From a virus, in IMG/VR virus record IMGVR_UViG_3300025122_000006: a DNA stretch of 64,000 bases. One strand, given 5' to 3'. A program made the position numbers and the translations under genes. Below the pieces are notes generated by a model that saw only the letters and a program-made list of their open reading frames with translations, was not told the DNA's origin and made no database searches. Shown piece by piece: positions 23,310 through 39,798 of the stretch (positions are counted from its first letter, which is position 1; each line of letters starts with the position of its first letter).

Positions 23310-23701
23310 TGTATATCTCCTAAAATTTTTGTTGTAGAATAATTCCCTATCCTATCAAAAAACGCTAATTCTCCAGCATATTGTTGACCTATAACTTTTT
23401 TTCCTTTCCAATCAGATCCAATCACCATTATATCTGGTTCAGTACTTTTAATTAAATTTGATAATTCCAAGGCGCTGCTGAACACCACTACTTTATCAAT
23501 ATAGCGTATGCTTTCTAAGGCGAATACTCTATCTTCCAAACAATTAAATGGCCGGAGGTCTCCTTTGTCTTTTTTAACTTTTTCATCAGAATCAATTCCA
23601 ACAATTAAAAAAGTACCAAGAGATTTGGCAAATTTAAATATCTCAAAGTGTCCTCTATGTAAGATGTCAAAACACCCATTTGTCCAAATAGTTTTATACA
23701 T
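23306..23701 (-). CDS. HldE/RfaE domain II-like nucleotidyltransferase (heptose-1-P adenylyltransferase type)
   Basis: TNGCFDILHRGH; GIDSD; KGDLRPFN...R; GSDW; YSTTKI. Confidence 0.85.
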   Translation of the reverse strand: MYKTIWTNGCFDILHRGHFEIFKFAKSLGTFLIVGIDSDEKVKKDKGDLRPFNCLEDRVFALESIRYIDKVVVFSSALELSNLIKSTEPDIMVIGSDWKGKKVIGQQYAGELAFFDRIGNYSTTKILGDIQ

Positions 23702-25045: not shown

Positions 25046-25992
25046 TCTCCAATATTATAATATTTTCTGTCATATAGGTTTAATAGTTTGTAAACTTTTA
25101 TAAGTTCTTTGACCCCATCTTCCACCGTTTTAGTGGTATCAAATCCTAATTTTTTTATTTTTTCATATGAAACCTCATAATTTCTGTGGTCTCTGTCATA
25201 ATCAAAGTTTTCATAATATACAAGACACTTAGTTTCTCTGGAAATAATTTCGCATACATCTTGTTTAGAATAACTCATTTTGTCGGAACCAATATTATAC
25301 GAATTACCAATCATTTTTTTCCATTTTTGAACACCCAGCAAAAAAGATTTTGCCATATCTTGTACGTGGATAAAAGATCTAATAAATTCGGGTTGATAAA
25401 CGACGATATACCCTTGTGTTTGTGCCAAATAGGTTAAATCGTTAACAAGTAAATCTAATCTCAATCTTGGGCTTGTACCAAAAGCAGTTGCAAAACGATA
25501 AGATATACTATTCTTACGAGACATACAAAGACCTTCTGACTCTGTCTTCGTGATACCATACAAAGAAGTTGGGTTTAAAGGGGAATCTTCATCACATTTT
25601 AAATTTTTAATTTTCCCGTAATTTGATCCTGTTGAACTATAAAACAACAATTGTTCATCTGACATCGTATCAATCAAAAGCTTGGTTCCTTCTATATTAA
25701 CTCTCCTGGCAAGGTCGGGTTTTTTATCACACAAAGGGAAGCCAACTAACGCCGCCAAATGAATTATAATATCTTTTCCTTTCACAACTTCTTTCAGATT
25801 TTTTTTGTCTAAAATATCGCCTCTGATAAAATGAAAATTTTTATTTGAAAAATGAGGAATTAATGGTTGTGGATCATAAGACACATTATCATACACTGTT
25901 ACTTCATGCCCTTCGTTTAATAACATGGGTATCAGAACAGATCCAATATATCCGGCACCGCCGGTTATTAAAATTTTATAAAACATTCTCAA
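25042..25992 (-). CDS. NAD-dependent epimerase/dehydratase (extended SDR)
   Basis: GGAGYIG; HLAALVGFPLC; YGITK; RFATAFG.SPRLRLDLLVN. Confidence 0.9.
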   Translation of the reverse strand: MRMFYKILITGGAGYIGSVLIPMLLNEGHEVTVYDNVSYDPQPLIPHFSNKNFHFIRGDILDKKNLKEVVKGKDIIIHLAALVGFPLCDKKPDLARRVNIEGTKLLIDTMSDEQLLFYSSTGSNYGKIKNLKCDEDSPLNPTSLYGITKTESEGLCMSRKNSISYRFATAFGTSPRLRLDLLVNDLTYLAQTQGYIVVYQPEFIRSFIHVQDMAKSFLLGVQKWKKMIGNSYNIGSDKMSYSKQDVCEIISRETKCLVYYENFDYDRDHRNYEVSYEKIKKLGFDTTKTVEDGVKELIKVYKLLNLYDRKYYNIGE

Positions 25993-26013: not shown

Positions 26014-26844
26014 TTATTCCACATCAAGTTCAGATAGAGTAGAATTTCCAAATCGCCTTTCCCAAACTTCCGATGCTTGCTGCCAATTATCGTAATCAAT
26101 TTTAATCCTATTCCGAGCGCCAGTTTCTTGAGCATAAATACTATAAAATAAAGGATAATCATTTTCATGATAAGCTTCCTCAGTTGGTGGTTTACGGTTT
26201 TTATTTTCAGGACGTTTAGCTAGAGATGGTGTTGGTATGTTAGTTTGCCTAATCACAATATCCGGTGACGGAAGAATACGGCCTCCAGCTTCCTGAACTC
26301 TAAAAGCGAGATCATTACAATTCATATTAACATGTTCGAATCTACAATCTATCCCGCCTATTTCACGATAATAATCCAAATAATACATTGCAATGTTAGC
26401 GATTCTAAAATGCTGTCTAACTCCGGGGAGCCTTAAATCTCTATGATACCAAGCCGTCCAGAGTTGTCTCTGATCCGGAATAGGCGCATTGGGATTGGCA
26501 TCTTGCTCAAAAAACCTAGAAGTCAAAGCATCGTGTCTATTATTCATACTCAATAAATCAATACAACGTGATAAAGCTAGAGGCTGAAATATACCATCTT
26601 CGCTGCCCCAGGTCATAAATTTACCCGTTGCAAATGTGGTGGCTCTTTGCAAACATCTTGAAGGGTGCCCAAAATCTTTCACATATTTAAAATTATCTTT
26701 TTCTAAAAGCTCTTGCGACGGATTATAAGGGCCGACACCAATAAACTCAAAAGAGTACTCTCCGACAGATTCGACAACACTCTCAAATATTTTTTCCCAT
26801 TTTTCTGGCTTTATCCCTGGGAGGATAACTGAAACATCATACAT
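26014..26844 (-). CDS. GT2-like glycosyltransferase (paralog family A)
   Basis: SVILPG; TWGSEDG; GGIDCRFE; DLAFR; C-terminal RIKIDYDNW...VWERRF. Confidence 0.7.
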   Translation of the reverse strand: MYDVSVILPGIKPEKWEKIFESVVESVGEYSFEFIGVGPYNPSQELLEKDNFKYVKDFGHPSRCLQRATTFATGKFMTWGSEDGIFQPLALSRCIDLLSMNNRHDALTSRFFEQDANPNAPIPDQRQLWTAWYHRDLRLPGVRQHFRIANIAMYYLDYYREIGGIDCRFEHVNMNCNDLAFRVQEAGGRILPSPDIVIRQTNIPTPSLAKRPENKNRKPPTEEAYHENDYPLFYSIYAQETGARNRIKIDYDNWQQASEVWERRFGNSTLSELDVE

Positions 26845-26866: not shown

Positions 26867-27607
26867 TCATACTATACTAACCCCTTTCTTTTGTACTACT
26901 TTGGTCGCGCAACTATTCGCGAACCTTATTGCCTTACCAATATCAAGACTTTTTACATACTCTACTACCAAACCGGCAAGAAAAGTATCACCTGCTCCGC
27001 AAGTATCTTTTATCTCTACTTTCGGAACAGGATAATTTATTCCTCTATACTTTGCCCCTCCGGGGCCTAAAGTAATAATTAATTTTTGTCTCAAATCATC
27101 AGTTATTTTTTCCTTTGTAGATTCATATTCAAATTGATTAATTTTTATATATGCTATAAGAGACGCCCAGGGCCCTAAAATTTTTTTAGTATCGAGAAAA
27201 ACTTTATTATTTTTGGTAGAAATATAATAAATATCGTCCTTTGTAAGAAAGCCTTTATTATAATCCGAAATTATAATCGCATCATAGTTAGAATAATCGT
27301 ATTTTCTTACATCTTGTTTTTCATAATTATCATCATTTTCATCCAACCTTAAAATAACATAATTGGTTCTGGTGTCAACAAACCTTATTTTCTGAACATT
27401 AGAATAATTTTCATTTGTTACCAAAGTTGCGTCAATGTTGGAAATGGCTTTTATGTTATTATAAACATTCATAGCCATACCACCATTTTCTTTTTTAACA
27501 CCATTATTTCTAAATACTGGAACCGGTGCCTCCGGAGCCAGCCTATTGCTGTCCCCATGTTGATAGACATCTAAACAACTTTCTCCAATAATCAAGATCT
27601 TGTTCAT
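26867..27607 (-). CDS. HldE/RfaE domain I-like PfkB sugar kinase (heptose-7-P kinase type)
   Basis: RLAPEAPVPV; GGMAMNV; ISDYNKGFL; DTCGAGDTFLA. Confidence 0.85.
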   Translation of the reverse strand: MNKILIIGESCLDVYQHGDSNRLAPEAPVPVFRNNGVKKENGGMAMNVYNNIKAISNIDATLVTNENYSNVQKIRFVDTRTNYVILRLDENDDNYEKQDVRKYDYSNYDAIIISDYNKGFLTKDDIYYISTKNNKVFLDTKKILGPWASLIAYIKINQFEYESTKEKITDDLRQKLIITLGPGGAKYRGINYPVPKVEIKDTCGAGDTFLAGLVVEYVKSLDIGKAIRFANSCATKVVQKKGVSIV

Positions 27608-28770
27608 AATTCACCTCGGACAACTTTACAAATAAAGTGAACCTCTTCTTCTTCTAATTCAGGGTAATTTGGAACAAAAAATCCACAAGAATGTATTCTG
27701 TTGCTCATTTCATCTTCAAATTCACCATATCTCTTTACCCAAAATGGGTGTTTTCCTAGATTGCCGGCACTAAAAATTCTAGTTTCTATGCCATTTTCCA
27801 CTAAGCGTGTTACTATTTCTTTTCTGTGTTCTGTACTATTTGCTAATGCCCCAAACGAGATAGAAACAGGATTGTGTCCTTGCCAGTCTTGAAATTCCAC
27901 ATATCCTTCTAGTAGCTTGGCATAGAGCAAATGATTCTTGTTTCTTCCTCTGGCTACTTGATTTGCTCTTTCAATTTGACGTAGTCCTAAAAAAGCTTGA
28001 AGATCAGTTGATCTAAGATTAAAACCGGCTATGAAGAAAGTAAAAGGTTTATGAAAATCATCTACCTCGGTTTCCTCAATTAGTTTATCATAACTATCTT
28101 GTGGTAAGTCCTTGCCCCAACCATGGCTACGAAGCATCAACAGGATTTCATACAATTCCTTGTCACTGGTGTTTACCATTCCACCTTCAATAGTTGAAAG
28201 TTGATGTCCAAAGTAAAATGAAAACGATGACATATCTCCAATAGTACCTACCATTTGACCATCGCTATAAGAGGCCCCTAGAGCCGCACAGGCGTCTTCT
28301 AGAAGTGTGAAGCCATACTTACTCTTAAGAGCCAGCAAACGCTCTCTATAGTGTGGTACGCCTAGCACCTGAACGTATATGACTGCATCTGGTCTTTCTT
28401 TTTCGCATACAGCTTCCAATTGATCCAAGTCAATACCAAAGGTTTTTCGATCTGCCCCAACCATAATGGGTTCAAGCCCAAATTGAATTGCAGGCGCAAT
28501 TGTAGTCACCCAGCCGACAGAAGGTACAACAATTTTTTTATTTGGAATCCTACCCGCCATGATTGCTGCATATACCATCAATAGATTGGCTGAAGATCCG
28601 GAATTATTAAATACAGAATATTTCGTCCCAATATATTTAGCCCAGCTGTTCTCTACATCCCAAGTTAATTGTCCCTTGGTAAGACGCGGATAACCTTTCA
28701 ACCAATCACACAAGGCATTAAGGTCTTCGTTATTGATCGTCTCTTTTGCCAATGGATATTTGATTTTCAT
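27604..28770 (-). CDS. PLP-dependent DegT/DnrJ-fold enzyme, ColD-type GDP-4-keto-6-deoxymannose 3-dehydratase
   Basis: NSGSSANL; LLEDAC; SFSFYFGHQLSTIEGG has His where aminotransferases carry the Schiff-base Lys (ColD/E1 signature); LRSHGW; GFNLR. Confidence 0.75.
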   Translation of the reverse strand: MKIKYPLAKETINNEDLNALCDWLKGYPRLTKGQLTWDVENSWAKYIGTKYSVFNNSGSSANLLMVYAAIMAGRIPNKKIVVPSVGWVTTIAPAIQFGLEPIMVGADRKTFGIDLDQLEAVCEKERPDAVIYVQVLGVPHYRERLLALKSKYGFTLLEDACAALGASYSDGQMVGTIGDMSSFSFYFGHQLSTIEGGMVNTSDKELYEILLMLRSHGWGKDLPQDSYDKLIEETEVDDFHKPFTFFIAGFNLRSTDLQAFLGLRQIERANQVARGRNKNHLLYAKLLEGYVEFQDWQGHNPVSISFGALANSTEHRKEIVTRLVENGIETRIFSAGNLGKHPFWVKRYGEFEDEMSNRIHSCGFFVPNYPELEEEEVHFICKVVRGEL

Positions 28771-29552
28771 TTTTGCTTTCCTTCCTCAAATCTTCTAGTC
28801 CAAACTTCTGGTGCTCGTTTCCAATTGTCGTAATCAATTTCTATTCTATCCAAACAACCTGAGCTTCTCCAAATACTAGCATATAAAGGCTGATCGTGTT
28901 CTAGTTGCGCATAATGAATTGGGGCGTGATCGCCCGAGGGCCCAGGGAACTGTGTGCATTCAAAAATAACACCGATTAACGATGCATCTATACCGTCCAA
29001 TTGGGCTCTTGCGCCAAAATCAACAAATGCCATCGGACACGCTTCAAATCTACAGTCAAACCCACCTAAATCTTTAAAATATTGAGTAGGCAGAACAACT
29101 GAATTAAAAATCAAAAAATTGTTTGGATAAAAAGGAGATCTAACTGGTTCATGAAAATTCATAAAATACATTCCTGCTTTTGGATCCCCGAGACCATCGC
29201 TTCCCCCTTCAATATATTGCGTAACAATACACTTTTTCTCTGACGAAATTTCATCCAACTGCCTAATACACTCTGATAGTCCATATGGTAAAAACCAGCC
29301 ATCATCAGCAGTCCAAGTAAGATATCTACCAGAAGCATTTTTCATAGATAATTGCTGAGCCCTTGTCGGAGCACCGAAGTCTTGTATACAAGAAACATTC
29401 TCTAAATCTTTTAACTCATCCGGAAGTTCCGCATGAGGTCCACAGAAAATTAATTCAAAAGAATAATCACCAACAGATCCCACAATACTATTGTATAATC
29501 TTGGCCAATTATCTTTTCTTATAGCAGCTAAGCAAACCGATAAATCATACAT
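28767..29552 (-). CDS. GT2-like glycosyltransferase (paralog family A)
   Basis: TWTADDG; GGFDCRFE; DFGAR; GDHAPIH; RIEIDYDNWKRAPEVWTRRF. Confidence 0.75.
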   Translation of the reverse strand: MYDLSVCLAAIRKDNWPRLYNSIVGSVGDYSFELIFCGPHAELPDELKDLENVSCIQDFGAPTRAQQLSMKNASGRYLTWTADDGWFLPYGLSECIRQLDEISSEKKCIVTQYIEGGSDGLGDPKAGMYFMNFHEPVRSPFYPNNFLIFNSVVLPTQYFKDLGGFDCRFEACPMAFVDFGARAQLDGIDASLIGVIFECTQFPGPSGDHAPIHYAQLEHDQPLYASIWRSSGCLDRIEIDYDNWKRAPEVWTRRFEEGKQK

Positions 29553-30341
29553 TTAAAATCTCCTTTTCCAAATTGATGGAGTATCTTCCCAATTATTCAA
29601 ATCTATTTTAACCCTTTCTAAACTAGAAGAGCTATTGTAAATTTTTCTAAAAAGCGGCTCCGCGTGTTCTATATGGGCGTAATGAACGGGGCCGTGATCA
29701 CCCATCGTACCCGGCATATGATCACAAACAAAAATAGGATGTTCCATCATAAAATACTTGGCGCCGTCTCTTTGGGTTCTAACAGCAAAATCCATATGAG
29801 AAATAGTAGTTATTTCGAATATCGAATCCCAACCTCCAATTTGCTTGGCATAATCAGTCTTAAGGATGCCAACATTCAAAACCCAATAATCATTAGGTAC
29901 AAAAACAGATCGTAAGCCGTCAGCATGATTAATTTTGTAATAAAAATCTTGTAACATATCCGGGCTATAATTTGATCCCTCTGTATATTTACAAGTAACT
30001 ATATCCTTATCGCTCGTTGCATTATTCGCCCAAAACCCTAATGCTTCGTCTAGACTATTATTTAAGAACCAGCCATCATCGGCGCCCCATGTAACAAACT
30101 CGCCTTCACAATGAACAAGACCAATCTGTTGACACCTTGAAGGGCTGCCGTAATCTTTAATAATTTTTATATTATCCAATGATTTCAAATCGTCTGGTAG
30201 ATCATATGGAGATACTATGATAATTTCAAAGGAATCGGAAAAGGAATCCATAACGCTGTTATAAAATTTCCTCCAGTTTTTTGTTCTAATTCCAGGTAGA
30301 ATTATTGATAATTTACATTTCATTTTTTTTATACCACTCAA
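29553..30341 (-). CDS. GT2-like glycosyltransferase (paralog family A)
   Basis: SIILPG; TWGADDG; GGWD; DFAVR; GDHGPVH; RVKIDLNNW...IWKRRF. Confidence 0.75.
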   Translation of the reverse strand: MSGIKKMKCKLSIILPGIRTKNWRKFYNSVMDSFSDSFEIIIVSPYDLPDDLKSLDNIKIIKDYGSPSRCQQIGLVHCEGEFVTWGADDGWFLNNSLDEALGFWANNATSDKDIVTCKYTEGSNYSPDMLQDFYYKINHADGLRSVFVPNDYWVLNVGILKTDYAKQIGGWDSIFEITTISHMDFAVRTQRDGAKYFMMEHPIFVCDHMPGTMGDHGPVHYAHIEHAEPLFRKIYNSSSSLERVKIDLNNWEDTPSIWKRRF

Positions 30342-31251
30342 TTGTTTTTGTTAGCCCATCTAATAAAGATGTCCTATCGTTAATTTTGATACCATAATCG
30401 CTCATCCTAGAAGAGTTTAAAATTTTACGGTATTGTCCGTCAGGTTTATCTGTGTTCCAATACAAAGTTCCCTTAAAGTTTGTTATATCCTTTATTAATT
30501 CTGCTAATTCCTTAATACTAATATCTTCATTAAAGCCTATATTTATAGGTAAATTAATAAAATCGTATCTTTCTAATGCCTGAACAATACCTTCTGCAGC
30601 ATCGGAACAATATATTAATTCTCTTCTTGGAGAACCAGTCCCCCAACATTCCACTGCAGATAAATTGTTTTTGGCTCCATCAACAAATTTTTTAATTAAA
30701 CCTCCAACAACTTTCGTTTTGTTCACATCAAAAGAATCATGTGGGCCGTAAGCAGTGTTGAAAATTGTACAGACAGCCATAGTTCCATATTGTTTATAAA
30801 TTTGTTTAGAAAAGGCATGTATTGCTTTTTTACCTAAGCCATGCGCTTCAACACTTTCATCTGGGAGCCCGATCCAAAAATCCTCTTCTTTTAACTCGTC
30901 AGCGGTGCTTCTATATGCACAAGAGGCTAAAGTAGAAACCACCTTTTTAACACCGGATTCTGCACATGCTTTTAGAGTATTTAATCCCATCGTAACCGTA
31001 TTATAAAAAATATCTGTTGGATATTTCTTATTAAACCCAATATTTCCATTATATCCTGCTAAGTGTATACAATAATCCGGATTGTATTTATAAAAAGCAG
31101 ATATAGCTTGATTATAATCCAAAAGATCACATTCTTCATGGAGGAGAGGTGCAACAATCGCTCCCCTATTTAACAATAATTTTATTGTCGCTCTACCTAT
31201 CATTGATGAAGCGCCGGTGACAATTACTTTTTTATTGCTCAAGTTTATCAT
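30313..31251 (-). CDS. GDP-L-fucose synthase / ColC-type epimerase-reductase
   Basis: HLAGYNGNI..N..YP; LASCAY; YGPHDSF; WGTGSPRRELIY..D; KPDGQYRK. Confidence 0.8.
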   Translation of the reverse strand: MINLSNKKVIVTGASSMIGRATIKLLLNRGAIVAPLLHEECDLLDYNQAISAFYKYNPDYCIHLAGYNGNIGFNKKYPTDIFYNTVTMGLNTLKACAESGVKKVVSTLASCAYRSTADELKEEDFWIGLPDESVEAHGLGKKAIHAFSKQIYKQYGTMAVCTIFNTAYGPHDSFDVNKTKVVGGLIKKFVDGAKNNLSAVECWGTGSPRRELIYCSDAAEGIVQALERYDFINLPINIGFNEDISIKELAELIKDITNFKGTLYWNTDKPDGQYRKILNSSRMSDYGIKINDRTSLLDGLTKTIEWYKKNEM

Positions 31252-31253
31252 AA

Positions 31254-32075
31254 CTATATTTTGTACCCTTCTTGATCACACAACTCTTCATATGAATTCG
31301 GAATACCTTTAGAAAATCTTCTTTCCCAAACTTCTGGGGCTCTTTTCCAATTGTCATAATGAATTTTTATTCTTTTGGAATAATATGTAGGATTCGAATA
31401 CATTAATTGAAATATTGGAGTGTCATGAGAAACCATAGCGTGGTGTATTGGAGAATGATCCCCTTCTTCGCCCGGGTACCAGGTGGCTATACAGGTGTGT
31501 TTTGGAGGAAAGACAATTTTCCCACCGTCTTTCTGTAGGCGAAACATAAAATCATGTATAGGCTTGTCGATGTATTCATAGTTAATACAATCTAGCCCCC
31601 CAAGTTCTATAAAATAATTTTTATTCATTATACATTGATTTGCAATTTTCCAAGATTGATCAATTCCGGGTAATCTAAAATCACCATGAGTTTTAACTTC
31701 CCAGTATTTGGTTTCCATTTTGTTGCCGCCTTCGCCGTAGATCATGCATACAACATCTTTATAGCCACATTGTTCTTTGTAAGTGTCCATAGCAAGATCA
31801 ATTGAATCTTCAGCAAAGACACAATCGTCGACAGTTAAAAAGAACAAATCACTTCTGATCTCTGGCATTCCTTTTTGGGCACATCTAGTAACGGTACCAT
31901 AATCTTTTATGAACAAAACATTTTCTTTATCCCAAAGTTCTTTCGGTGGCTCAAACGGCCCAATAAAAACTATCTCCCAACTGTATCTTTTACAGGCTTG
32001 CTTGACACTTTCGTATACTTTTGGCCACAAAGGTGTACGAAACGCCGGTATAAAAATTGATAAATCGTATTTCAT
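31254..32075 (-). CDS. GT2-like glycosyltransferase (paralog family A)
   Basis: SIFIPA; LTVDDC; GGLDC; DFMFR; GDHSPIH; RIKIHYDNWKRAPEVWERRF. Confidence 0.75.
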   Translation of the reverse strand: MKYDLSIFIPAFRTPLWPKVYESVKQACKRYSWEIVFIGPFEPPKELWDKENVLFIKDYGTVTRCAQKGMPEIRSDLFFLTVDDCVFAEDSIDLAMDTYKEQCGYKDVVCMIYGEGGNKMETKYWEVKTHGDFRLPGIDQSWKIANQCIMNKNYFIELGGLDCINYEYIDKPIHDFMFRLQKDGGKIVFPPKHTCIATWYPGEEGDHSPIHHAMVSHDTPIFQLMYSNPTYYSKRIKIHYDNWKRAPEVWERRFSKGIPNSYEELCDQEGYKI

Positions 32076-32611
32076 TTAATAGCCTCCACATTTAAACTCA
32101 TTAATTTTCCGTTTTCCTTATCCATATGAGGATAGTAAGTCTGAGAATAATCGTCAACATGAAAATGCTCCGTATCTCCCCAATCGTATCTATTTATATC
32201 ACGAAACCCAACGGTTGTCAAGTCTTCTTTTAATTTTTTATAATCCCATCCGTTTTTATGATAATCATACGAGTGTTTTTGGCTTCCCCAAAAAGTTGAA
32301 TGAAGCAACCTTAAATTCTTATGATAATAGTAATGTGCAAAGTGCGCTTCCATATCTGGTACTGCCAATCTCAAAACGCCACCGGGCTTTAAAATTTTAT
32401 ACCATCTTTTTAGAGCCTTTTCAGATTCGATATAATCTGCATGTTCTAAAACATGACAAGCGTATATAAGATCTACTGATTCGTTTTCGAACTTGTTTAA
32501 TTTGAAAACATCGTCAACAATATCTGGGCTTACATCCTCCCTAATATCGATGTTTATAAATCCATATATTTTTCTATCGTAACAGCCCAAATTTAATTTT
32601 ACGCTATTCAA
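32072..32611 (-). CDS. Class I SAM-dependent methyltransferase
   Basis: KLNLGC; NIDI; SVDLIYACHVLEH; ILKPGG.LRLAVPD; SLNVEAIK. Confidence 0.85.
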   Translation of the reverse strand: MNSVKLNLGCYDRKIYGFINIDIREDVSPDIVDDVFKLNKFENESVDLIYACHVLEHADYIESEKALKRWYKILKPGGVLRLAVPDMEAHFAHYYYHKNLRLLHSTFWGSQKHSYDYHKNGWDYKKLKEDLTTVGFRDINRYDWGDTEHFHVDDYSQTYYPHMDKENGKLMSLNVEAIK

Positions 32612-33564
32612 GTTATCCTCCTGTAGTGGTCCAAAAGAAATTCAACACTTTCATCAATTGAATATTTTGGTTTCCACCCAGTTTTTTTTATAAATTTAGA
32701 TACATCTGGTATTTGCATTGTTACATCCACAGGCCTTAACAACCTCTCATCAACTTCAGATTTAATCGAAACAGAAGATTTAGATTTTAAAATATCTAAA
32801 AATTCTCCCACAGTTGTAACGGCTTCCCCACCAACATTATAAGGAACTCCATAGTCACAATGCTGACAAGCAACCCAATAAGATTCCATGGCGTCCCTAG
32901 CATCTATAAGTGTTCGAACTGAATTTAAATTACCATGGGTTAATATCCTTCTCTTGCCCTGTTCAATTTCCACTATTTTTCTTGCGAAAGCGCTTGAAAA
33001 AATATCTCCCCTCCTTGGATTTATATAAGCAAACATTCTAGTTATGACTACTTTCATCCCATAAGAATAAAAATAAGAACTGGCTATTTTTTCTTGTGTC
33101 AATTTTGAAACAGCATAAATATTAACCGGCTCTAGTGGAGCCTCTTCTGTTATAGGAGTGTTTTTAACATCTACTAAGCCATAAACTTCCGATGTCCCAC
33201 AAAACTGTATTATCGGATCGATACCCACTATCCTAATAGCCTCAAACAAATTAATTGTATTACTAATGTTGTTTTGTAAAACAGCTATCGGATTTGAAAA
33301 ACATACGTGAACATTAGCATGAGCAGCAAGATGAAAAATATAATCTGGCCGGGCGGCTTGTAGTGCCCGGATTGTTGCACTCAAGTCTGTTAGATCACAT
33401 TCATGCATTTTAATTTTATGTGAAATTCCTTTCAAATTTGAATTTGAAGTTGTACTGTGCCACCTTGAAATACCATGAACTTCTAGATCAGTATTGTTCA
33501 ACAAAAATTCTGCCAAATAACTACCACCACTACCAGCGATTCCTGTTATTAATGCTCTTTTCAT
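32608..33564 (-). CDS. gmd: GDP-mannose 4,6-dehydratase
   Basis: ALITGIAGSGGSYLAEFLL; GTSEVYG (catalytic T/E); YAVSK; GNLNSVR; LLRPVDV. An RMD-type reductase is not fully excluded. Confidence 0.7.
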   Translation of the reverse strand: MKRALITGIAGSGGSYLAEFLLNNTDLEVHGISRWHSTTSNSNLKGISHKIKMHECDLTDLSATIRALQAARPDYIFHLAAHANVHVCFSNPIAVLQNNISNTINLFEAIRIVGIDPIIQFCGTSEVYGLVDVKNTPITEEAPLEPVNIYAVSKLTQEKIASSYFYSYGMKVVITRMFAYINPRRGDIFSSAFARKIVEIEQGKRRILTHGNLNSVRTLIDARDAMESYWVACQHCDYGVPYNVGGEAVTTVGEFLDILKSKSSVSIKSEVDERLLRPVDVTMQIPDVSKFIKKTGWKPKYSIDESVEFLLDHYRRIT

Positions 33565-34557
33565 TTATTTTCCTCTAACAAATGCATGTTGGATTTTATC
33601 ATAATCAAGAATTTCTTTACTCAAAAACAAATTATTTTTAATAAACTCTTTTAATCTATCATCGATACTAAATCCATTTTCATCAAATTGATTTACATCA
33701 TGAACCAAAAACGTTTTATCATCTGGTACGTCCATTTTATGAGCAAATCTAGGAACCCACTCTTCATGACCAAAACCGCAGGCTGCAGCTTCCGGACTTT
33801 CTACTATTTCTTTAACGCTTTTACACCCGGGATATACAATATCCCAACCAGCTCCAAACACTTGAGTCTGTCCATCTAATCCTTGATGCATTCCCTTATT
33901 GGTGCCATGGTAGCACATTACGTCATTTGCTATAACAAATCTTTGTTTGACTGCCGCGGCAAGAAAAGAAAACGACGATTCAGAACAGTAGGAAACAAAA
34001 ATATCTGGTAATGGACGCCCATACTCTTTGAGTATTTTATTAGAAAAGACAGCACAATGTAAATTTGCTGTGGATCCTAACGGAACGACAAAATCTTTTT
34101 CTCTACCAAAAACATCCCAGATATTTTGGCTTTCATCAAAGTCAAACCACCAAAAATAACCGTTGTCCTTATCTATTTCGGGGGATACAATTCCGTTTTC
34201 TTCATTTAGAATTCTGTTGTTTAATTTTGCCAAAGAAGTTAAATCATCTGTAAATCTTACATCAGAGGCTACATAAACATATCCATCAAATTCCCCAAAC
34301 TCTTGAATGCCCTTGAGAACAGCGTGATTGAAAGATTGGTTAACGGCTAGCTTCTCATTCGTAAAATAGTAACTTATTCTATCCCCAAAAGCTTCATAAA
34401 CTTTTTGAAAAGTTTTTTTACTTACAAAACAACCAGAAAATATAACTCTTTTATCTTCAAAGTTCTGATCAAGAATAGAACTGATATGTTCAATATATGT
34501 GGAAGAGTTTTCTCTCCCCGAGAGGCCACAAGTATTATATACAATCATTAAGGACAT
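33565..34557 (-). CDS. Putative glycosyltransferase, divergent GT-A fold (paralog family B)
   Basis: VYNTCGLSGRE; VNQSFNHAV; YVYVASDV; NLHC.VFSN; PDIFVSYCSES; clear paralog of 34561..35505. Confidence 0.5.
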   Translation of the reverse strand: MSLMIVYNTCGLSGRENSSTYIEHISSILDQNFEDKRVIFSGCFVSKKTFQKVYEAFGDRISYYFTNEKLAVNQSFNHAVLKGIQEFGEFDGYVYVASDVRFTDDLTSLAKLNNRILNEENGIVSPEIDKDNGYFWWFDFDESQNIWDVFGREKDFVVPLGSTANLHCAVFSNKILKEYGRPLPDIFVSYCSESSFSFLAAAVKQRFVIANDVMCYHGTNKGMHQGLDGQTQVFGAGWDIVYPGCKSVKEIVESPEAAACGFGHEEWVPRFAHKMDVPDDKTFLVHDVNQFDENGFSIDDRLKEFIKNNLFLSKEILDYDKIQHAFVRGK

Positions 34558-34560
34558 CTG

Positions 34561-35505
34561 TTATCTCACAAATTTATATTTAAGTTTATCATAATCAAAA
34601 GTCTTTTTATTCAAAAACATATTGATTCTAATAAATTCTTTGAGTCTTTCCGGAACTTCCACAAAACCATCTTTATATTTTTCTCTGTCATGCGGGAAAA
34701 CTCCCTGCATCTCTTCGTATCCAAAGCCGCTGTCCCAAGCTTCTGGTTGTTTGACTATCTCTCTTATATCCAGCCCACCGAATAGATTATTTGTACTATC
34801 CCCCCTTGGGCCAATATGATGAAACCCACTAGTGGCTCCATCAACACTTTTAAGGTGTTCTAAGACCAAATCTTTCATAATAATCCATTTTTGAGAAACC
34901 CCAGCGGCTACAAACGAAAATACCGATTCTGTGCAATATGCTACAAAAATATCAGGAATTATTTTTCTATCGTAAGCTTTAAAAATTTCATTAGAAAATA
35001 ATTGTGTGTGCAAATTACATGCTCTTCCGATTGGAATTTCAAAATGCTCATCTACTATATGCCCCTTTATATTAAACCATGGTCCAAAACCCGTATCGTT
35101 ACTCGCTTGCAAAGTGACCATACCGTAGGGACCAGATTTGTACAAATCCCAAGTATCTTTTAAAGTATAGATATTGTCTCTAAAGTTTATTCCGGAATCC
35201 ACATACAAATAAGAATCAAATTCATCAAATTGGTCAACACATTTTTGCACAGTATGATTAAAAGATTGGTTTACTGTTATTCTTTCATTTGTAAAATTAA
35301 AAGATACCCTTCCTTTGAATTCTTGTACTAATCTTTTCACTACTCTTAAAGAATTGCCACAGCTTGAAATAACCACATGAAACCCATCAAATTGTTGTTT
35401 TAGGATATTATTGACACAATCAATATACCACTCAACACTTTCTCTACCAGAAAAACCGCAAGTATTATAAACAACTAAAATCTTATTTTTCATTATAAAA
35501 ATCAC
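34561..35505 (-). CDS. Putative glycosyltransferase, divergent GT-A fold (paralog family B)
   Basis: VYNTCGFSGRE; VNQSFNHTV; YLYVDSG; NLHTQLFSN; PDIFVAYCTES. Confidence 0.5.
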   Translation of the reverse strand: MIFIMKNKILVVYNTCGFSGRESVEWYIDCVNNILKQQFDGFHVVISSCGNSLRVVKRLVQEFKGRVSFNFTNERITVNQSFNHTVQKCVDQFDEFDSYLYVDSGINFRDNIYTLKDTWDLYKSGPYGMVTLQASNDTGFGPWFNIKGHIVDEHFEIPIGRACNLHTQLFSNEIFKAYDRKIIPDIFVAYCTESVFSFVAAGVSQKWIIMKDLVLEHLKSVDGATSGFHHIGPRGDSTNNLFGGLDIREIVKQPEAWDSGFGYEEMQGVFPHDREKYKDGFVEVPERLKEFIRINMFLNKKTFDYDKLKYKFVR

Positions 35506-36022
35506 CCCATTCTACCAATATAGTGCTTCTACCATCTGTCCTATTATATGCTTTATAATACGCTGGAAATATATCTTCTGGTTCGTCTAATCTAATAACT
35601 TCAATAGTACTTAACATGTGTTTAAATGCTTCAGTAAAGTCTCCGGAATGTTGAGTTTGAGGATCTAAAGGCCTAACGGATCCTATGCCCGTCCTTATAA
35701 TAACTTTTGGAGTAAATTGTCCATCCGTATAAACGGGATATTTATCCAAATGGTTTACTAATTGATTTGCCGCCAATAATAAAAAATTCCATCTAGGATA
35801 AATACTAATGGGAACTAAGCCACCAACCGCTAAACCATTTGTTATACCCATTTGCATTTCTTCATTAACCGGCATTTCAATTAATTTATCTCTAGATATT
35901 TTTCCAAGTGTGTTGGTCATCGCAGTGCCTTTATATTCAACTGCTTGACCCAAAAATACTGTATCTTCCTGTTTTCCAAGATAAGTCATCGCTTTTTCTA
36001 ATTCATTGAAATATTTTCCCAT
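35483..36022 (-). CDS. ThDP enzyme pyrimidine-binding subunit (E1-beta/transketolase PYR domain, no C-terminal domain)
   Basis: LGQAV; IEMPVNEE..MG...GLA; NQLVN; QHS.DF. Confidence 0.8.
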   Translation of the reverse strand: MGKYFNELEKAMTYLGKQEDTVFLGQAVEYKGTAMTNTLGKISRDKLIEMPVNEEMQMGITNGLAVGGLVPISIYPRWNFLLLAANQLVNHLDKYPVYTDGQFTPKVIIRTGIGSVRPLDPQTQHSGDFTEAFKHMLSTIEVIRLDEPEDIFPAYYKAYNRTDGRSTILVEWGDFYNEK

Positions 36023-36031
36023 TCTTTCCTC

Positions 36032-36652
36032 TTAAAATTGAACTCTTGTCCCCGCACCAGCGTGAGGATATTTATCTAAATTATATTTGTAATATGTAAT
36101 GTATTCATCATTAACCCCTTCGTAAGTCATCTTCTCCAGAGCCCAAGTTGCTTTCGTATCAGTGCATACAGATTTGCCATTATCTTCAATAATAAAATGA
36201 ATAGGTAGTTTATGGTTTCTAGCATATTTAATACATTCGTGTGCTGCTCCTGTCTCGGAAGTCATTTCTCCCATGAAGCAATAAACTTTATTGGTTCCGC
36301 CCGACCTTTTTATGCCGAGAGCCAAACCTACCGAAACAGATAATTGACCTGTCACGATTCCAGAACATAAAACTCGTTGTTCTTTGAAGCCTAAAGAAAT
36401 TGATCTTCCCTGCAAGATAGACTTTTTTAATTCTTCTTTCGGGACACCTTTTAATAAGCATTGATAATGACTCCTCCAAGAACACAAAACCCAATCATCT
36501 TTACTAATTTTATGTTTTTTAAAAATATCAATCATTTGCTCTTCATTGCCATGATATAAATGAACTGGTGCCTTAATTAACGCATTATTAAAGCATTCTG
36601 CTATTTCATTTTCGAATTCAATTAATTCTTCTTTAGTCATCATTTTAATCAC
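36032..36652 (-). CDS. ThDP enzyme PP-binding subunit (E1-alpha-like, short)
   Basis: PVHLYHGNE; WRSHY..L.KG; GIV; FMGEM..ETG..HE....HKLPIHFIIEDN. Confidence 0.8.
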   Translation of the reverse strand: MIKMMTKEELIEFENEIAECFNNALIKAPVHLYHGNEEQMIDIFKKHKISKDDWVLCSWRSHYQCLLKGVPKEELKKSILQGRSISLGFKEQRVLCSGIVTGQLSVSVGLALGIKRSGGTNKVYCFMGEMTSETGAAHECIKYARNHKLPIHFIIEDNGKSVCTDTKATWALEKMTYEGVNDEYITYYKYNLDKYPHAGAGTRVQF

Positions 36653-38159
36653 CTAAAATTTTTCTTTTTAATTTATGATCACACATCTTAACAATCCCAT
36701 CACGAGTTTCTTTTCCAAATTTATTTTCAATGGAATTCAAATATCTTTCGTCTTCGTGATAATTGTTAAATGCGGCATCCCTAAATTTTACCACTTCTGC
36801 CGCGGAAATATATTTGGTATCAAGTGGACGCATATTATAGGAATGCTGAGAATAGCCAACATAAGAATCTGGCAATGTTAAACTCTCTTTAAGTGCCTCT
36901 AGATACAATTTAGACCCTGGATATGCCATCGAACAATAAAAATTTGCAAATTCACAATTCAAATCTTTTGCCAAATCTAGAGTCTCTTGCATAGTTTCCA
37001 GGTTGTCTTCGGGTAAACCAAAAATATAATTACCAATTACATTTATACCAGCATCTTGAATTTGTTTTACTAAATCTTTAATGTTAACTTCGGTGAATTT
37101 TCCTTTGATAACATCTTTTCTAACGACTTTATTGCCCGACTCAATTCCCAATGCTAACCATTCAACGCCAGCTTTTTTCAAAGTTTCTAAATAAGATTCT
37201 TTTACTGTATCAATTCTTGCATATGCCCAGATATTAAAATCGTATCCTCTATCGACTATATTGTCACATAATTTCATGAAATGATTTTTGTTCAAAACGA
37301 ACATCTCATCAGCAATTTTTACATTCCTAATTCCCATTTCAGCAATCTTATCAAATTCAGTTATCATGAAATCTGGATCCCAAAATCTAAACTTATTTCT
37401 TCCATAATCCCAATTTTCAATATTATTGTTCCCAAAAGGAGCATTAATGCAACAAAAACTACATCTAAAGGGGCACCCAAGGCTCGTATACAAAGACGCA
37501 AAAGGAGCGGTATCATTATCATTAGACATTGCATGCCAGTTGGAAGTTCTATATTTTTCCATAGGAAGAAGATCCCAGGCTACACCGGGAAGTTCATGCT
37601 GTAGTTGGTCTTGTGTGATTAAAGGAGCCGGTCTTGTAAAACAAATTTTACCTTCATCCCTATACCATAGTCCTGGTACTTTTCTTAATTGTGTTGAGTC
37701 TTCTAAATCACTAATTTGCAAAAGAGCAGTGATCGTTCTAGGGCCTTCTCCTTGGCAAACAAAATCGGCTTTTTCATCTTGCATTGTTTTTCGCGAAGTC
37801 GCCGATGGATAGAGACCAGTCAACAAAACTTTTAGACTTGGGTTTATTTCTTTTAAAAATTCCATACAATCATGTACACCTTGCATATTTTGAGTTGAAG
37901 CCGATGGTTGTTGTCCATAGACCACAAACACAGTTAATTTTGGATTTAATTTATTAATCCTCATGGCACTTTCAAACGAAGAAATACCTTCCGCTTCACA
38001 ATCCAAAATTAGTGTATTATGGTATCCAGCCGATCTTAAGTGATTAGCCAGCAAACCAGCCCAAATTGGAGGCTCAATTGCAGATAAATTTTTACTTAAA
38101 TCTTGATAAACTTTTTCTGATGCGTTGGGATGCACAAATAATACATCTAATTTATTCAT
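36645..38159 (-). CDS. Cobalamin-dependent (class B) radical SAM protein
   Basis: N-terminal B12-binding-like domain; SLGCPFRCSFCC (CxxxCxxC); ADEMF; LGIESG; YIFGLP; YPGSKLY; AGGAG RBS before ATG 38159. Confidence 0.9.
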   Translation of the reverse strand: MNKLDVLFVHPNASEKVYQDLSKNLSAIEPPIWAGLLANHLRSAGYHNTLILDCEAEGISSFESAMRINKLNPKLTVFVVYGQQPSASTQNMQGVHDCMEFLKEINPSLKVLLTGLYPSATSRKTMQDEKADFVCQGEGPRTITALLQISDLEDSTQLRKVPGLWYRDEGKICFTRPAPLITQDQLQHELPGVAWDLLPMEKYRTSNWHAMSNDNDTAPFASLYTSLGCPFRCSFCCINAPFGNNNIENWDYGRNKFRFWDPDFMITEFDKIAEMGIRNVKIADEMFVLNKNHFMKLCDNIVDRGYDFNIWAYARIDTVKESYLETLKKAGVEWLALGIESGNKVVRKDVIKGKFTEVNIKDLVKQIQDAGINVIGNYIFGLPEDNLETMQETLDLAKDLNCEFANFYCSMAYPGSKLYLEALKESLTLPDSYVGYSQHSYNMRPLDTKYISAAEVVKFRDAAFNNYHEDERYLNSIENKFGKETRDGIVKMCDHKLKRKILGD

Positions 38160-38166
38160 AATTCTC

Positions 38167-39096
38167 CTAGTAATTTGCGAACCAAGGCGATTCAATAATT
38201 TCATATGCTTTCATTAATTCTTTGATACCAGTATCAAGATCATTTTCACAAGTGAAACCTTTGTCATAAATCTTTTGGCTACTAACAACATAATCTCTAG
38301 TATCAGGATCAGAATTGAATTCAGCCTTAATAACCTCCAAAGGAATGTGTCTTTGAATTGTTTTTGCAAGTTGTAATTTGTTCATGTTGATTTCATCATG
38401 GCCAACATTATAAGTTTCATTTTTGCATTGTTCCCAATTATCTAAAACAAATTTAAACGATCTACAAGCATCTTGAATATGCAAATAATTCCTCATAAAT
38501 TCACATTCATATAAAACCAAAACCCTTTCTCGCAAAGCTTTTAGGACAAAATTATTAACTAATAGGTCCGTTCTCATTCTAGAAGAGGGGCCAAAAACAG
38601 TTGCAAATCTAAATGTCACATGATTTTCCACTTCTTTGTAGGCTTTCTCTGCCTGCACTTTTGTGACTCCGTACAAGGAAATAGGATTTAATTCGGATTC
38701 TTCGGTACACACGCCATTACCGGTTCCGTATCCAGAATTTGTACAAGGATAAATAACTATTTGATCTTTCGATTTATTATCGGCAATCCACTGATTTACT
38801 TCGTAATTGATTTCTTTTGCCCCTCTTTTATCTCTATCGCATAGGGGAAAACCAACTAGTGCTGCCAATGGAATTATAATATCTGCTTTTGATACATATT
38901 TTTTTAAAAGATTAATGTTTCTAACATCTTCTTTTACAAAATTAAAATTTGAACACGTAGTATATCGCAATAAAGAAGTGCAATCATACATTAAATTATC
39001 TAAACAGGTGACTTCATAGCCATCACCTAATAAATGCGCAGTGAGTTCACTACCGATATACCCAGCTCCGCCCGTAATTAAAACTTTTTCTCTCAT
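38167..39096 (-). CDS. NAD-dependent epimerase/dehydratase (paralog of 25042..25992)
   Basis: GGAGYIG; PLAALVGFPLC; YGVTK; RFATVFG.S.RMRTDLLVN; likely start MREKVL at 39096. Confidence 0.9.
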   Translation of the reverse strand: MREKVLITGGAGYIGSELTAHLLGDGYEVTCLDNLMYDCTSLLRYTTCSNFNFVKEDVRNINLLKKYVSKADIIIPLAALVGFPLCDRDKRGAKEINYEVNQWIADNKSKDQIVIYPCTNSGYGTGNGVCTEESELNPISLYGVTKVQAEKAYKEVENHVTFRFATVFGPSSRMRTDLLVNNFVLKALRERVLVLYECEFMRNYLHIQDACRSFKFVLDNWEQCKNETYNVGHDEINMNKLQLAKTIQRHIPLEVIKAEFNSDPDTRDYVVSSQKIYDKGFTCENDLDTGIKELMKAYEIIESPWFANY

Positions 39097-39398
39097 CACC
39101 ACTCCAGTTTTCCAGTTACAATATCTTTGAGCATTATCCAATCACATGCTTTTGCCCATGCTGGTCTCGAGAAAGCAGCGGGAATGTTTTTTTCAAAAAA
39201 ATAATGCCCTGACCACGCAAAGGGATAAACAACAAAAGGCGCCAATAACAGCAAAGCCCAAATCTGTGTTAATATGGTGCCTATAATAAATATAATTGTT
39301 ACTAGTTGACCTAAAACATGTAAACGACGAGTCCATTTATTCTGATGTAATGTTAAATAGTATTCATAATATTCTTTAAATGTCAAGTTATTATTCAT
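39096..39398 (-). CDS. DUF962/Mpo1-like membrane protein
   Basis: F.EYY.YYL.LHQN..TRRLH..G; FAWSGHYFFEKN.PA.F. Confidence 0.85.
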   Translation of the reverse strand: MNNNLTFKEYYEYYLTLHQNKWTRRLHVLGQLVTIIFIIGTILTQIWALLLLAPFVVYPFAWSGHYFFEKNIPAAFSRPAWAKACDWIMLKDIVTGKLEW

Positions 39399-39798
39399 CC
39401 CAACTAATCTCCCAATCTTTAAATTCTGCCGCCAAGCAGTCTATCTTATAATCTTTGCGACCGCCAACTTTTTCTTGTATTCTATTCTTTGCTGTGTTTC
39501 TGATTCCATTTAGGCCGTGAGTTAATTCTAAGTTATTTCCATCTCTAATTCCTTTACGATAATTTGATTCATTGTGCCAAATGTGTAAATTCATTTGAGA
39601 GAGTACGACGATGGATCGAATTAATTGAGCATCGATTACTTTGCTTTCTGAGAGCAAAATATCAATGTCATGGCAAATATCCGAAATTTCTTTAGCGTAT
39701 TCTTCTTTATGATTAGGGATAAAAACCTCTTTCAACTGGACTATAGATAATCTATCTACTAGTTCGGATAATGTCGGTAAATATTTTCTTTTTTCCAT
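39391..39798 (-). CDS. Hypothetical helical protein
   Basis: TLSELVDRLSIVQLK...NLHIWH.E...N..RN..KN.I. Confidence 0.65.
   Translation of the reverse strand: MEKRKYLPTLSELVDRLSIVQLKEVFIPNHKEEYAKEISDICHDIDILLSESKVIDAQLIRSIVVLSQMNLHIWHNESNYRKGIRDGNNLELTHGLNGIRNTAKNRIQEKVGGRKDYKIDCLAAEFKDWEISWDE

Follow-up and report, generated by a model that had tools for sequence, protein, structure and literature searches.

In the capsular heptose pathways of Campylobacter jejuni, the enzyme Cj1427 oxidises GDP-heptose at C4, using a tightly bound NADH that is recycled by alpha-ketoglutarate, and, together with a C3-dehydratase that depends on pyridoxal phosphate (PLP) and glutamate, it gives GDP-D-glycero-3-deoxy-4-keto-heptose in vitro (PMC10680097). 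In the yersiniose and erwiniose pathways, the thiamine diphosphate (ThDP) enzymes YerE and ErwE perform a carboligation onto a 3,6-dideoxy-4-keto sugar, after which YerF or ErwF reduces the product (PMC9306805); pairs of E1-like proteins do the sugar branching in avilamycin and paulomycin (PMC4425429). Here we analyse a gene cassette in a 64,000-nucleotide stretch of an uncultured T4-like myovirus (IMG/VR record IMGVR_UViG_3300025122_000006; the whole stretch is called the window below), in which a putative sugar C4-dehydrogenase, a putative C3-dehydratase and a miniature ThDP enzyme are encoded together with a cobalamin-type radical S-adenosylmethionine (SAM) enzyme. The product of the cassette is probably not colitose derived from mannose but a branched deoxy sugar, so far undescribed, that is built on a heptose. 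No paper describing it was found in the literature; the hypervariable region of pelagimyophages has been described merely as lipopolysaccharide (LPS)-related genes and radical SAM cassettes (PMC7029224).

A preliminary description of this DNA, made from its letters alone, had singled out positions 27604-38159. Every gene type that it named was found where it had been placed. The interval itself is too narrow: the sugar island spans about 22.6-43.9 kb, or about 21 kb. All genes are on the minus strand and close-packed, with many 4-base overlaps.

The five core genes

Five genes carry the argument. SDR stands for short-chain dehydrogenase/reductase, and PMP for pyridoxamine phosphate:

38167-39096, minus strand: Cj1427-like NAD-dependent sugar C4-dehydrogenase (SDR324); 312 bits, E 2.9e-92, to PDB 6VO6/6VO8
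36645-38204, minus strand: cobalamin-type (class B) radical SAM enzyme; B12-binding PF02310 47.7 bits and Radical_SAM PF04055 63.5 bits, both above cutoff
36032-36652, minus strand: mini E1-alpha, the ThDP diphosphate-binding subunit, 206 amino acids; E1_dh 49 bits
35483-36022, minus strand: mini E1-beta, the ThDP pyrimidine-binding subunit, 179 amino acids, without Transketolase_C; Transket_pyr 34.9 bits
27604-28770, minus strand: ColD-like PMP/PLP sugar 3-dehydratase of the DegT fold, with His replacing the Schiff-base Lys; PF01041 213 bits, residues 13-384

Among solved relatives of the DegT enzyme, ColD (2GMS) comes first with 177.7 bits (E 3.6e-51), followed by the dehydratase E1 (3BCX) with 135 bits; aminotransferases reach at most 100 bits, and the match to perosamine synthase, at 100 bits, lies below both ColD and E1. 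The histidine in FYFGHQLSTIEGG aligns with His188 of ColD, the residue replaced in the mutant structures 3B8X and 2R0T (H188N and H188K); aminotransferases have a lysine where the phage enzyme and ColD have this histidine. The length is also ColD-like, 388 amino acids as compared to 390 for ColD and 437 for E1. The change from Lys to His, already pointed out in the preliminary description, is thus real, and the bit scores, closer to dehydratases than to aminotransferases, identify a His-type ColD-like 3-dehydratase, predicted to remove the C3 hydroxyl. ColD-type enzymes deoxygenate C3 with PLP and glutamate, E1-type enzymes with an Fe-S cluster and the help of a reductase, E3. No gene for an E3-like reductase was seen among the open reading frames (ORFs) of the window that were scanned.

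The SDR324 frame runs on to 39141, its probable start being the Met at 39096. The protein aligns end to end with 6VO6 and 6VO8, conserves the motifs TNSGYG and YG[VI]xK (YxxxK), and would oxidise the sugar at C4. The gene lies directly upstream of the radical SAM gene, just outside the interval first described, and the grouping of genes proposed there had no C4-dehydrogenase; this enzyme turns out to be the invariant partner of the ColD-like, ThDP and radical SAM genes. A genome scan seeded with the SDR returned no Campylobacter locus.

The two ThDP subunits are truncated. Mini E1-alpha covers positions 7-182 of the 300-position E1_dh profile, and mini E1-beta is the Transket_pyr domain alone. 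The ThDP/Mg motif G-[DE]-x...[ED]-N is conserved in mini E1-alpha and all its relatives, and the ThDP-activating Glu (PVxE) of mini E1-beta is kept in all relatives. Both proteins miss the curated 2-oxo acid dehydrogenase equivalog scores (80 bits against a cutoff of 394 for alpha, 45 against 321 for beta), and no E2 or E3 gene occurs among the scanned ORFs of the window. In 2-oxo acid dehydrogenases, the parts of E1 that are absent here serve E2 binding and lipoyl transfer; since both these parts and the E2 and E3 genes are missing, the pair is best seen as a stand-alone enzyme, and it was rightly set apart from pyruvate dehydrogenase from the outset.

Described enzymes resemble the pair only in part. 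AviB1/AviB2 and Pau11/Pau12 are likewise two-subunit E1-type ThDP enzymes in deoxysugar clusters without E2 and E3, but Pau11 (325 amino acids) and Pau12 (345 amino acids) are full-length, come from the secondary metabolism of actinomycetes and probably work once glycosyl transfer has taken place (PMC4425429), whereas the phage subunits, of 206 and 179 amino acids, consist of the diphosphate-binding (PP) and pyrimidine-binding (Pyr) domains only; the avilamycin and paulomycin pairs are here compared by description. YerE is a ThDP-dependent flavoprotein (PMC4425429), and the phage enzyme is a two-subunit truncated E1 with no acetolactate-synthase-type Pfam domain above cutoff: the YerE-type set of TPP_enzyme_N, M and C in a single chain was not found, TPP_enzyme_C reaching only 18 bits, below its cutoff. 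The pair may work like YerE, yet it is not a member of the YerE-type family.

Mini E1-alpha has thousands of near relatives of 203-206 amino acids, the best 120 being 75-99% identical, and many come from Tara or other metagenomes, so the lineage appears to be abundant in marine samples. In a Pelagibacteraceae single-cell assembly (L052), the radical SAM gene precedes two adjacent ThDP pairs, at 11529-13261 and 13263-14405: a longer pair of 279 and 305 amino acids and a mini pair of 200 and 178 amino acids, 61-67% identical to the phage pair. Next come genes for a GHMP kinase, for a DegT enzyme of the His type, for RmlC and for the Cj1427-like SDR.

The radical SAM enzyme has the architecture of class B enzymes such as BchE, HpnJ, the GenK/Fom3 type and AprD4, with an N-terminal B12-binding domain, a radical SAM core and a CxxxCxxC motif, here at C244, C248 and C251 and invariant among relatives. 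A start at 38159 is plausible, because these relatives mostly align from about residue 16. The best families are BchE (143 bits, cutoff 481) and HpnJ (131 bits), the best solved relative is AprD4, and all family matches stay below cutoffs: unlike the described class B enzymes, this one is an equivalog of no curated family, and its scores place it far outside the characterised methyltransferase subfamilies (PhpK, GenK/KedN5, TsrM, HpnR and others). Neither BchE nor HpnJ is known to be a methylase, and BchE forms a five-membered carbocycle. Of the two things that had been said of this enzyme, membership of class B holds, given the B12-binding domain and the CxxxCxxC motif; methylation of carbon is only one option when BchE and HpnJ, which form rings, head the family matches. 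GenK, AprD4 and, putatively, HpnJ act on sugars, and we know of no class B radical SAM enzyme described as acting on the nucleotide sugar of a cell-surface glycan. The catalytic residues of the ThDP pair, of the radical SAM enzyme and of the dehydratase are all intact.

Recurrence of the cassette in viruses and bacteria

Two sets of loci, none shorter than 15 kb, were compared: 50 from IMG/VR, collected with mini E1-alpha as the seed, and 97 unique ones from bacteria, for which the radical SAM enzyme was the seed. All 50 viral loci encode the radical SAM enzyme together with E1-beta and a Cj1427-like SDR, and 42 of the 50 have a DegT gene; all 57 viral DegT copies are of the His type. The bacterial loci contain a His-type DegT gene in 82 cases out of 97, a ThDP Pyr subunit in 83, a PP subunit in 78 and a Cj1427-like SDR in 77, together with a GHMP kinase (82/97), an NTP_transferase (73/97) and, less often, a SIS gene (23/97). 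Two of the GHMP kinases were checked against NCBIfam, and match HddA best, with 139 and 124 bits.

The order of the genes is also kept. The run p135 - SDR - radical SAM - E1-alpha - E1-beta, where p135 is a conserved helical protein, is common to 34 IMG/VR loci with the radical SAM enzyme. After E1-beta comes a variable block of GT-A glycosyltransferase, GMD-like, Fcl-like and methyltransferase genes, then the ColD-like gene; a kinase-nucleotidyltransferase-phosphatase-cupin group follows it where the fetched locus reaches that far (L002). In bacteria the cassette can be a compact operon: radical SAM - DegT(His) - Transketolase_N - Transketolase Pyr/C - SDR in Bdellovibrio (L059), and SDR - GHMP - GMD - PP - PYR - DegT - radical SAM in L067. 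Because the cassette recurs in synteny in so many viral and bacterial loci, the grouping is not due to chance: the C4-dehydrogenase, the radical SAM enzyme, the ThDP pair and the ColD-like enzyme make up one conserved pathway; this, and not the synthesis of colitose, is the pathway of the ColD-like enzyme. A functional link between the 3-dehydratase, the ThDP pair and the radical SAM enzyme, as parts of one sugar pathway, had been suggested before, and their co-occurrence bears it out. The combination had also been thought unfamiliar among phages, which is not the case: 427 IMG/VR stretches encode relatives of mini E1-alpha. On the bacterial side, 529 relatives of the radical SAM enzyme, spread over many phyla, were confirmed in a one-genome-per-species collection scanned with a single Burkholderiaceae protein. 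Among the bacteria with the cassette that can be grown are Herbaspirillum lusitanum RL21-008-BIB-A, Bdellovibrio sp. HCB288 and Marinomonas ostreistagni.

This distribution bears on the idea that the ThDP pair and the radical SAM enzyme work outside glycan synthesis, on a phosphonate, a lipid or a cofactor, and merely happen to lie within a hypervariable island. The radical SAM enzyme does have weak matches to PhpK-type P-methyltransferases and to HpnJ, and Mpo1-like and fatty-acid-hydroxylase-like genes are nearby. A phosphonate pathway, raised by the PhpK-like match, was rejected, as no phosphoenolpyruvate mutase was found and the gene is syntenic with sugar genes; no lipid pathway gene was found either. 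With its synteny with sugar enzymes extending over many bacterial phyla and phages, a role outside glycans, already disfavoured by the co-occurrence, is highly improbable.

The preliminary description had another scheme, in which GDP-mannose is turned into GDP-L-colitose by GMD, ColD and an Fcl/ColC-like enzyme, while the ThDP and radical SAM enzymes form a side branch toward a methylated analogue of GDP-yersiniose. Much of what this scheme calls for is indeed encoded. Among solved structures, the ColD of E. coli is closest to the DegT enzyme and shares its catalytic His, cyanophage ACG-2014f has a similar series of two SDR genes and then a His-type DegT gene, and the window contains genes of the GMD and Fcl families and a phosphomannomutase gene:

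32608-33564, minus strand: GMD/RMD-family SDR, probably an NDP-heptose (or NDP-mannose) 4,6-dehydratase, NDP being nucleoside diphosphate; PF16363 227 bits
30313-31251, minus strand: Fcl-like SDR, a C4 reductase, possibly also an epimerase; NF047922 184 bits, below cutoff 500
32072-32611, minus strand: small class I SAM methyltransferase; Methyltransf_11 36.8 bits
50042-50839, minus strand: eukaryotic-type phosphomannomutase; PF03332 138.9 bits

However, the first of these genes does not look like a true GMD. It has the dehydratase Thr-x-Glu (GTSEVYG), then YxxxK (YAVSK), but it misses the GMD equivalog TIGR01472 by a wide margin (158.5 bits against a cutoff of 415), and its best solved relatives are the GDP-heptose 4,6-dehydratase 7US5 (181 bits) and RMD (2PK3, 175 bits), GMDs reaching at most 135. 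The best solved relatives of the Fcl-like SDR are GDP-L-fucose synthases, at 150 bits. Neither gene travels with the cassette as the ColD-like gene does with the ThDP and radical SAM core: GMD-type genes are found in 19 and Fcl-type genes in 18 of the 50 viral loci, and GMD-like genes in only 11 of the 97 bacterial ones, against 49 for Fcl-like genes; L006 and L024 are the only loci with close orthologs of the GMD-like gene (80-84% identity), and L024 alone has one of the Fcl-like gene (68%). No mannose-1-phosphate guanylyltransferase was found among the window ORFs scanned. Finally, the supplier of the 4-ketone would be a C4-dehydrogenase here, and not a 4,6-dehydratase as in the colitose pathway; the GMD-like and Fcl-like genes, both below equivalog cutoffs, are accessories. 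The succession of GMD, ColD and ColC is thus not the conserved logic of these loci, and the colitose scheme is unlikely.

A distinctly improbable alternative concerns the ThDP pair, which could act in a transketolase-like manner, or as a decarboxylase, on a sugar phosphate or keto acid. Instead of branching an NDP-4-keto sugar, it would make an unusual precursor ahead of activation, on which the radical SAM enzyme would then operate. Cyanophages S-SM2 and P-TIM68 encode a fused alpha+beta mini ThDP enzyme (33-39% identity) that adjoins the same kinase and nucleotidyltransferase as in the island, and neither a radical SAM gene nor a DegT gene is annotated within the parts shown; the ThDP subunits of bacterial cassettes are full-length E1 or split-transketolase forms, some with Transketolase_N and Pyr/C subunits. 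On the other hand, the phage subunits score as the E1 (2-oxo acid) type, and the pair co-occurs almost invariably with the His-type 3-dehydratase and the C4-dehydrogenase, the makers of reactive 4-ketones, a pattern that is needed for carboligation at C4 and not for making a precursor.

A proposed route to a branched deoxy heptose

We thus conjecture, with a probability of roughly 0.6, that the cassette would take an NDP-heptose through oxidation at C4, deoxygenation at C3, addition of a two-carbon branch at C4, a radical SAM step, reduction and glycosyl transfer. The starting nucleotide sugar, most likely that of D-glycero-D-manno-heptose, would come from an HldE-like kinase, a small phosphatase and a cytidylyltransferase-fold nucleotidyltransferase. 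These genes, and the cupin gene grouped with them, are:

26867-27607, minus strand: pfkB sugar kinase, HldE domain I-like; rfaE_dom_I 98 bits, below cutoff
23306-23701, minus strand: cytidylyltransferase-fold sugar-1-phosphate nucleotidyltransferase, HldE domain II-like; PF01467 63.9 bits, rfaE_dom_II 113.6 bits, the latter below cutoff
22989-23309, minus strand: small capsule-type (EcbF/BcbF-like) phosphatase; TIGR01689 37 bits, below cutoff
22637-23011, minus strand: cupin of 124 amino acids; Cupin_2 37 bits, 61% identical to a P-TIM68 gene annotated 'cysteine dioxygenase'

The Cj1427-like SDR at 38167-39096, with its 312 bits to a solved enzyme, would then oxidise C4, and the His-type ColD-like enzyme, to judge from its family, would strip the C3 hydroxyl to leave a 3-deoxy-4-keto sugar. 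To the C4 ketone of this sugar the mini ThDP pair could add a two-carbon acyl unit derived from pyruvate, in the manner of YerE in the making of yersiniose. Next would come the B12 radical SAM enzyme, working on a carbon of the branched intermediate: methylation of an unactivated carbon is the default expectation, ring closure or rearrangement the alternative. An SDR would reduce the remaining ketone, and about nine glycosyltransferases would place the product on virion proteins or on a host envelope glycan. The precedents for this order are the C4 oxidation and C3 dehydration of C. jejuni, the branching by YerE and ErwE, and the E1-like pairs of avilamycin and paulomycin. The choice of a heptose over mannose, which was the substrate supposed at first, comes from the Cj1427-like enzyme, from the heptose-type kinases, and from the 'GMD' that resembles a heptose dehydratase, with 7US5 as its best match. 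The earlier idea of a yersiniose-like product, a 3-deoxy-4-keto sugar with a branch borne by ThDP, fits the linkage between the ThDP, radical SAM and 3-dehydratase genes.

Several considerations weigh against the proposed route. Each of its steps is drawn from homology or genomic context, and all curated NCBIfam cutoffs are missed. The family counts depend on our own ORF calling, on assignment by best phmmer hit, and on loci cut at 10 kb on each side. We take 6VO6 to be Cj1427, in line with the molecule name given by its depositor, and this identification is provisional. The activation genes of the phage are HldE-like, as in the ADP-beta-heptose route, whereas the relatives Cj1427, ColD, GMD and Fcl work on GDP-alpha sugars, which makes both the nucleotide and the anomer ambiguous. 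The phosphomannomutase in the window suggests that mannose nucleotides may also be made, leaving a hexose route open, and, because the bacterial ThDP partner is sometimes transketolase-like, the donor of the two carbons may not be pyruvate.

Like the C. jejuni capsular GDP-heptose pathways (PMC10680097), the phage has homologs of the C4-dehydrogenase, two of them, with 312 and 279 bits to 6VO6, of the 4,6-dehydratase (7US5 being the best match), of the C3-dehydratase, of the cupin epimerases and of the Fcl-type and RmlD-type reductases. The mix-and-match logic is also the same, and bacterial cassettes carry HddA-like kinase, NTP_transferase and SIS genes. In contrast, neither a ThDP enzyme nor a radical SAM enzyme figures in the toolbox given in PMC10680097, the activation genes of the phage are of the ADP-beta type, and identities are moderate, with curated cutoffs missed. 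The yersiniose and erwiniose pathways, which comprise E1/E3, YerE/ErwE and YerF/ErwF (PMC9306805), share with the predicted route the C4 acyl branching of a 3-deoxy-4-keto sugar, followed by reduction by an SDR; but the substrate of yersiniose synthesis is a CDP-hexose where that of the phage is probably an NDP-heptose, and there is no radical SAM step. We also considered erwiniose itself as the product, by way of a C7-methylated 3,6-dideoxy-heptose that receives a two-carbon branch. This was rejected: erwiniose is made without a radical SAM enzyme, by a YerE-type enzyme that uses 4-hydroxy-2-oxopentanoate on a CDP-hexose (PMC9306805). What is probably new in the cassette, within this kind of deoxy and branched nucleotide-sugar pathway, is the class of substrate, the minimal ThDP enzyme and the added radical SAM step.

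If the radical SAM enzyme closes a ring instead of transferring a methyl group, the outcome could be a carbocycle. As a radical cyclase, it would abstract a hydrogen at C7, and the resulting radical would add to the carbonyl of the C4 acetyl group, forming a cyclopentane: a 4,8-cyclo-3,9-dideoxy-nonose, which is the skeleton of caryose. The biosynthesis of caryose is stated to be unknown, and HpnJ is implicated in cyclitol formation (PMC9092360). The carbon count agrees, 7 + 2 = 9, as do the deoxy positions C3 and C9; the 6-OH would be retained because the cassette uses a C4-dehydrogenase and not a 4,6-dehydratase; and the two best families of the radical SAM enzyme are BchE and HpnJ. However, the caryose producer Burkholderia/Trinickia caryophylli was missing from the 80 best genomes of two scans whose seeds were radical SAM sequences of betaproteobacteria and Burkholderiaceae, and about half of the bacterial cassettes carry an Fcl-like reductase for which the scheme has no need. 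We consider it a long shot; if true, the cassette would be the route, long looked for, by which carbocyclic higher sugars are made, and these sugars would be widespread, both in bacteria and on or around marine phages.

If the proposed heptose route is correct, the 529 radical SAM relatives and 427 IMG/VR ThDP relatives would belong to a widespread, uncharacterised nucleotide-sugar cassette, whose enzymology would be new in joining a ThDP carboligase and a cobalamin radical SAM enzyme to a C4-dehydrogenase and a PMP 3-dehydratase. The E1 pair of 206 + 179 amino acids would be a minimal ThDP carboligase, of interest for biocatalysis. The 'LPS and radical SAM genes' in the hypervariable regions of abundant marine myoviruses would acquire a testable chemical meaning, with a product that serves as virion decoration or in remodelling the host surface. 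The public labels 'aminotransferase', 'pyruvate dehydrogenase' and 'phosphoheptose isomerase' on such phage and metagenome genes appear misleading.

The rest of the island and its surroundings

The core lies at the centre of a phage glycan island, best explained as a combinatorial toolbox for modifying heptoses. The GMD-like, Fcl-like and methyltransferase genes look like an accessory branch toward a 6-deoxy or 3,6-dideoxy, possibly methylated, heptose; motif I of the methyltransferase is slightly degenerate (LNLGCY), and its orthologs in related loci are 50-80% identical. A second set of genes looks like another accessory branch of the toolbox:

25042-25992, minus strand: second Cj1427-like C4-dehydrogenase paralog (SDR316); 279 bits to 6VO6, 41% identical to 38167-39096
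24191-25045, minus strand: RmlD-like 4-ketoreductase; RmlD_sub_bind 126 bits
23720-24187, minus strand: cupin, candidate sugar epimerase/isomerase (RmlC/FdtA-like); Cupin_2, FdtA and Polysacc_synt_C matches

The match pattern of this cupin is similar to that of a dTDP_sugar_isom protein in locus L110. The trio of SDR316, RmlD-like reductase and cupin resembles the Cj1427/Cj1430/Cj1428 route of C. jejuni to an epimeric 6-hydroxy-heptose, and both accessory branches look like parallels of the capsular heptose pathways of that species.

The remaining genes of the island are mostly glycosyltransferases:

42657-43922, minus strand: GT-B (GT4) glycosyltransferase, conserved island head; Glycos_transf_1 45 bits, phrog_2170, orthologs 54-57% in related phage loci
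41425-42660, minus strand: GT4-like glycosyltransferase; weak GT4-conflict and Glycos_transf_1 matches, 43-49% identity in related loci
39800-41428, minus strand: GT2 glycosyltransferase with an N-terminal extension of about 280 amino acids; PF00535 57.5 bits, residues 293-458
39391-39798, minus strand: conserved helical protein p135, 135 amino acids; present in 31 of the 50 viral loci
39096-39398, minus strand: Mpo1-like small protein; PF06127 101 bits, kept in close phage relatives only
34561-35505, minus strand: protein of 314 amino acids without family match; 38% identical to its paralog at 33565-34557
33565-34557, minus strand: protein of 330 amino acids without family match; 38% identical to its paralog at 34561-35505
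31254-32075, minus strand: GT-A glycosyltransferase paralog U273; 30-40% identical to the three other paralogs
29553-30341, minus strand: GT-A glycosyltransferase paralog U262, from paralogy and the family fold model
28767-29552, minus strand: GT-A glycosyltransferase paralog U261, the modelled member; AlphaFold2 predicted local distance difference test (pLDDT) 90.9
26014-26844, minus strand: GT-A glycosyltransferase paralog U276, from paralogy and the family fold model

A Foldseek search with the U261 model returned, with probability 1.0, the fucosyltransferase WrtF (E 8e-11), RmlT, TarS and GalNAc-T2. In the four GT-A paralogs, of 261-276 amino acids, the first residue of the acidic, DxD-like pair, D83, is nearly invariant and the second, D84, invariant. 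In the island there was no sign of a flippase, a polymerase or an initiating transferase, which suggests a cytoplasmic acceptor, either virion proteins or a host precursor.

Protein p135 is 70-88% identical within the phage lineage, and 78% in a Prochlorococcus single-cell assembly (L051). Its AlphaFold2 model is a helix bundle (pLDDT 85), and Pfam, the ESM atlas (viral hypotheticals only), Foldseek and VIA-align gave no function or convincing fold match; the invariant polar residues E77, H94, N97, R100, N101, K104, D116, K118 and D120 suggest an active or binding site. The tandem pair at 33565-34557 and 34561-35505, directly downstream of the ThDP pair, has no Pfam or NCBIfam match and was seen only in the closest relatives, L006 and L024, and in L051.

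Some of the activation genes have counterparts in cyanophages. In S-SM2 and P-TIM68, the gene next to the fused ThDP gene, labelled 'carbohydrate kinase', encodes a protein with 45-49% identity to the pfkB kinase, and the phosphatase at 22989-23309 is 55% identical to a P-TIM68 gene annotated 'phosphoheptose isomerase'. This label in P-TIM68 (L036, 12399-12737), as well as 'cysteine dioxygenase' (11968-12399), looks wrong, the homologs in the island resembling a capsule-type phosphatase and a plain cupin. In the phage collection, the radical SAM enzyme has only weak matches, 23-25% identical, in three records. Outside the island lies one more activation gene:

48857-49300, minus strand: second cytidylyltransferase-fold nucleotidyltransferase; PF01467 48.5 bits

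Relatives with about 50% identity are found inside compact cassettes in the distant viral loci L021 and L026. The phosphomannomutase gene is about 0.7 kb away, and the two could form a separate module for activating sugar-1-phosphates.

As to the phage itself, a gp6-type baseplate wedge protein is encoded at 9141-10937, and its closest relatives, at about 30% identity, are from Flavobacterium phage immuto, an uncultured 484-kb phage and Microcystis phage Mel-JY01; with such relatives, an identification as a pelagimyophage is unsupported. A search for near-identical DNA with the 10.6-kb region against 50,697 phage records gave no match. The island is near tail-fibre genes, as are the islands of cultured cyanomyoviruses and pelagimyophages, and the window also encodes an endolysin, a PhoH-like protein and two giant proteins.

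Three other genes of the window deserve mention. A protein of the fatty-acid-hydroxylase family (PF04116; 46814-47233) adjoins the PhoH gene, and makes, with the Mpo1-like gene, two lipid-type oxygenase-like genes in one phage. A protein of 398 amino acids at 55266-56462 has a HAD/PNK3P-type phosphatase domain fused to a NUDIX hydrolase domain, and could trim sugar phosphates or nucleotide sugars. Finally, a small metallopeptidase-like protein is encoded at 46094-46759; it matches the domains Peptidase_M90 and ATLF weakly, below their cutoffs, and in related phages it is kept at 35-44% identity, beside a PD-(D/E)XK nuclease at the island head.

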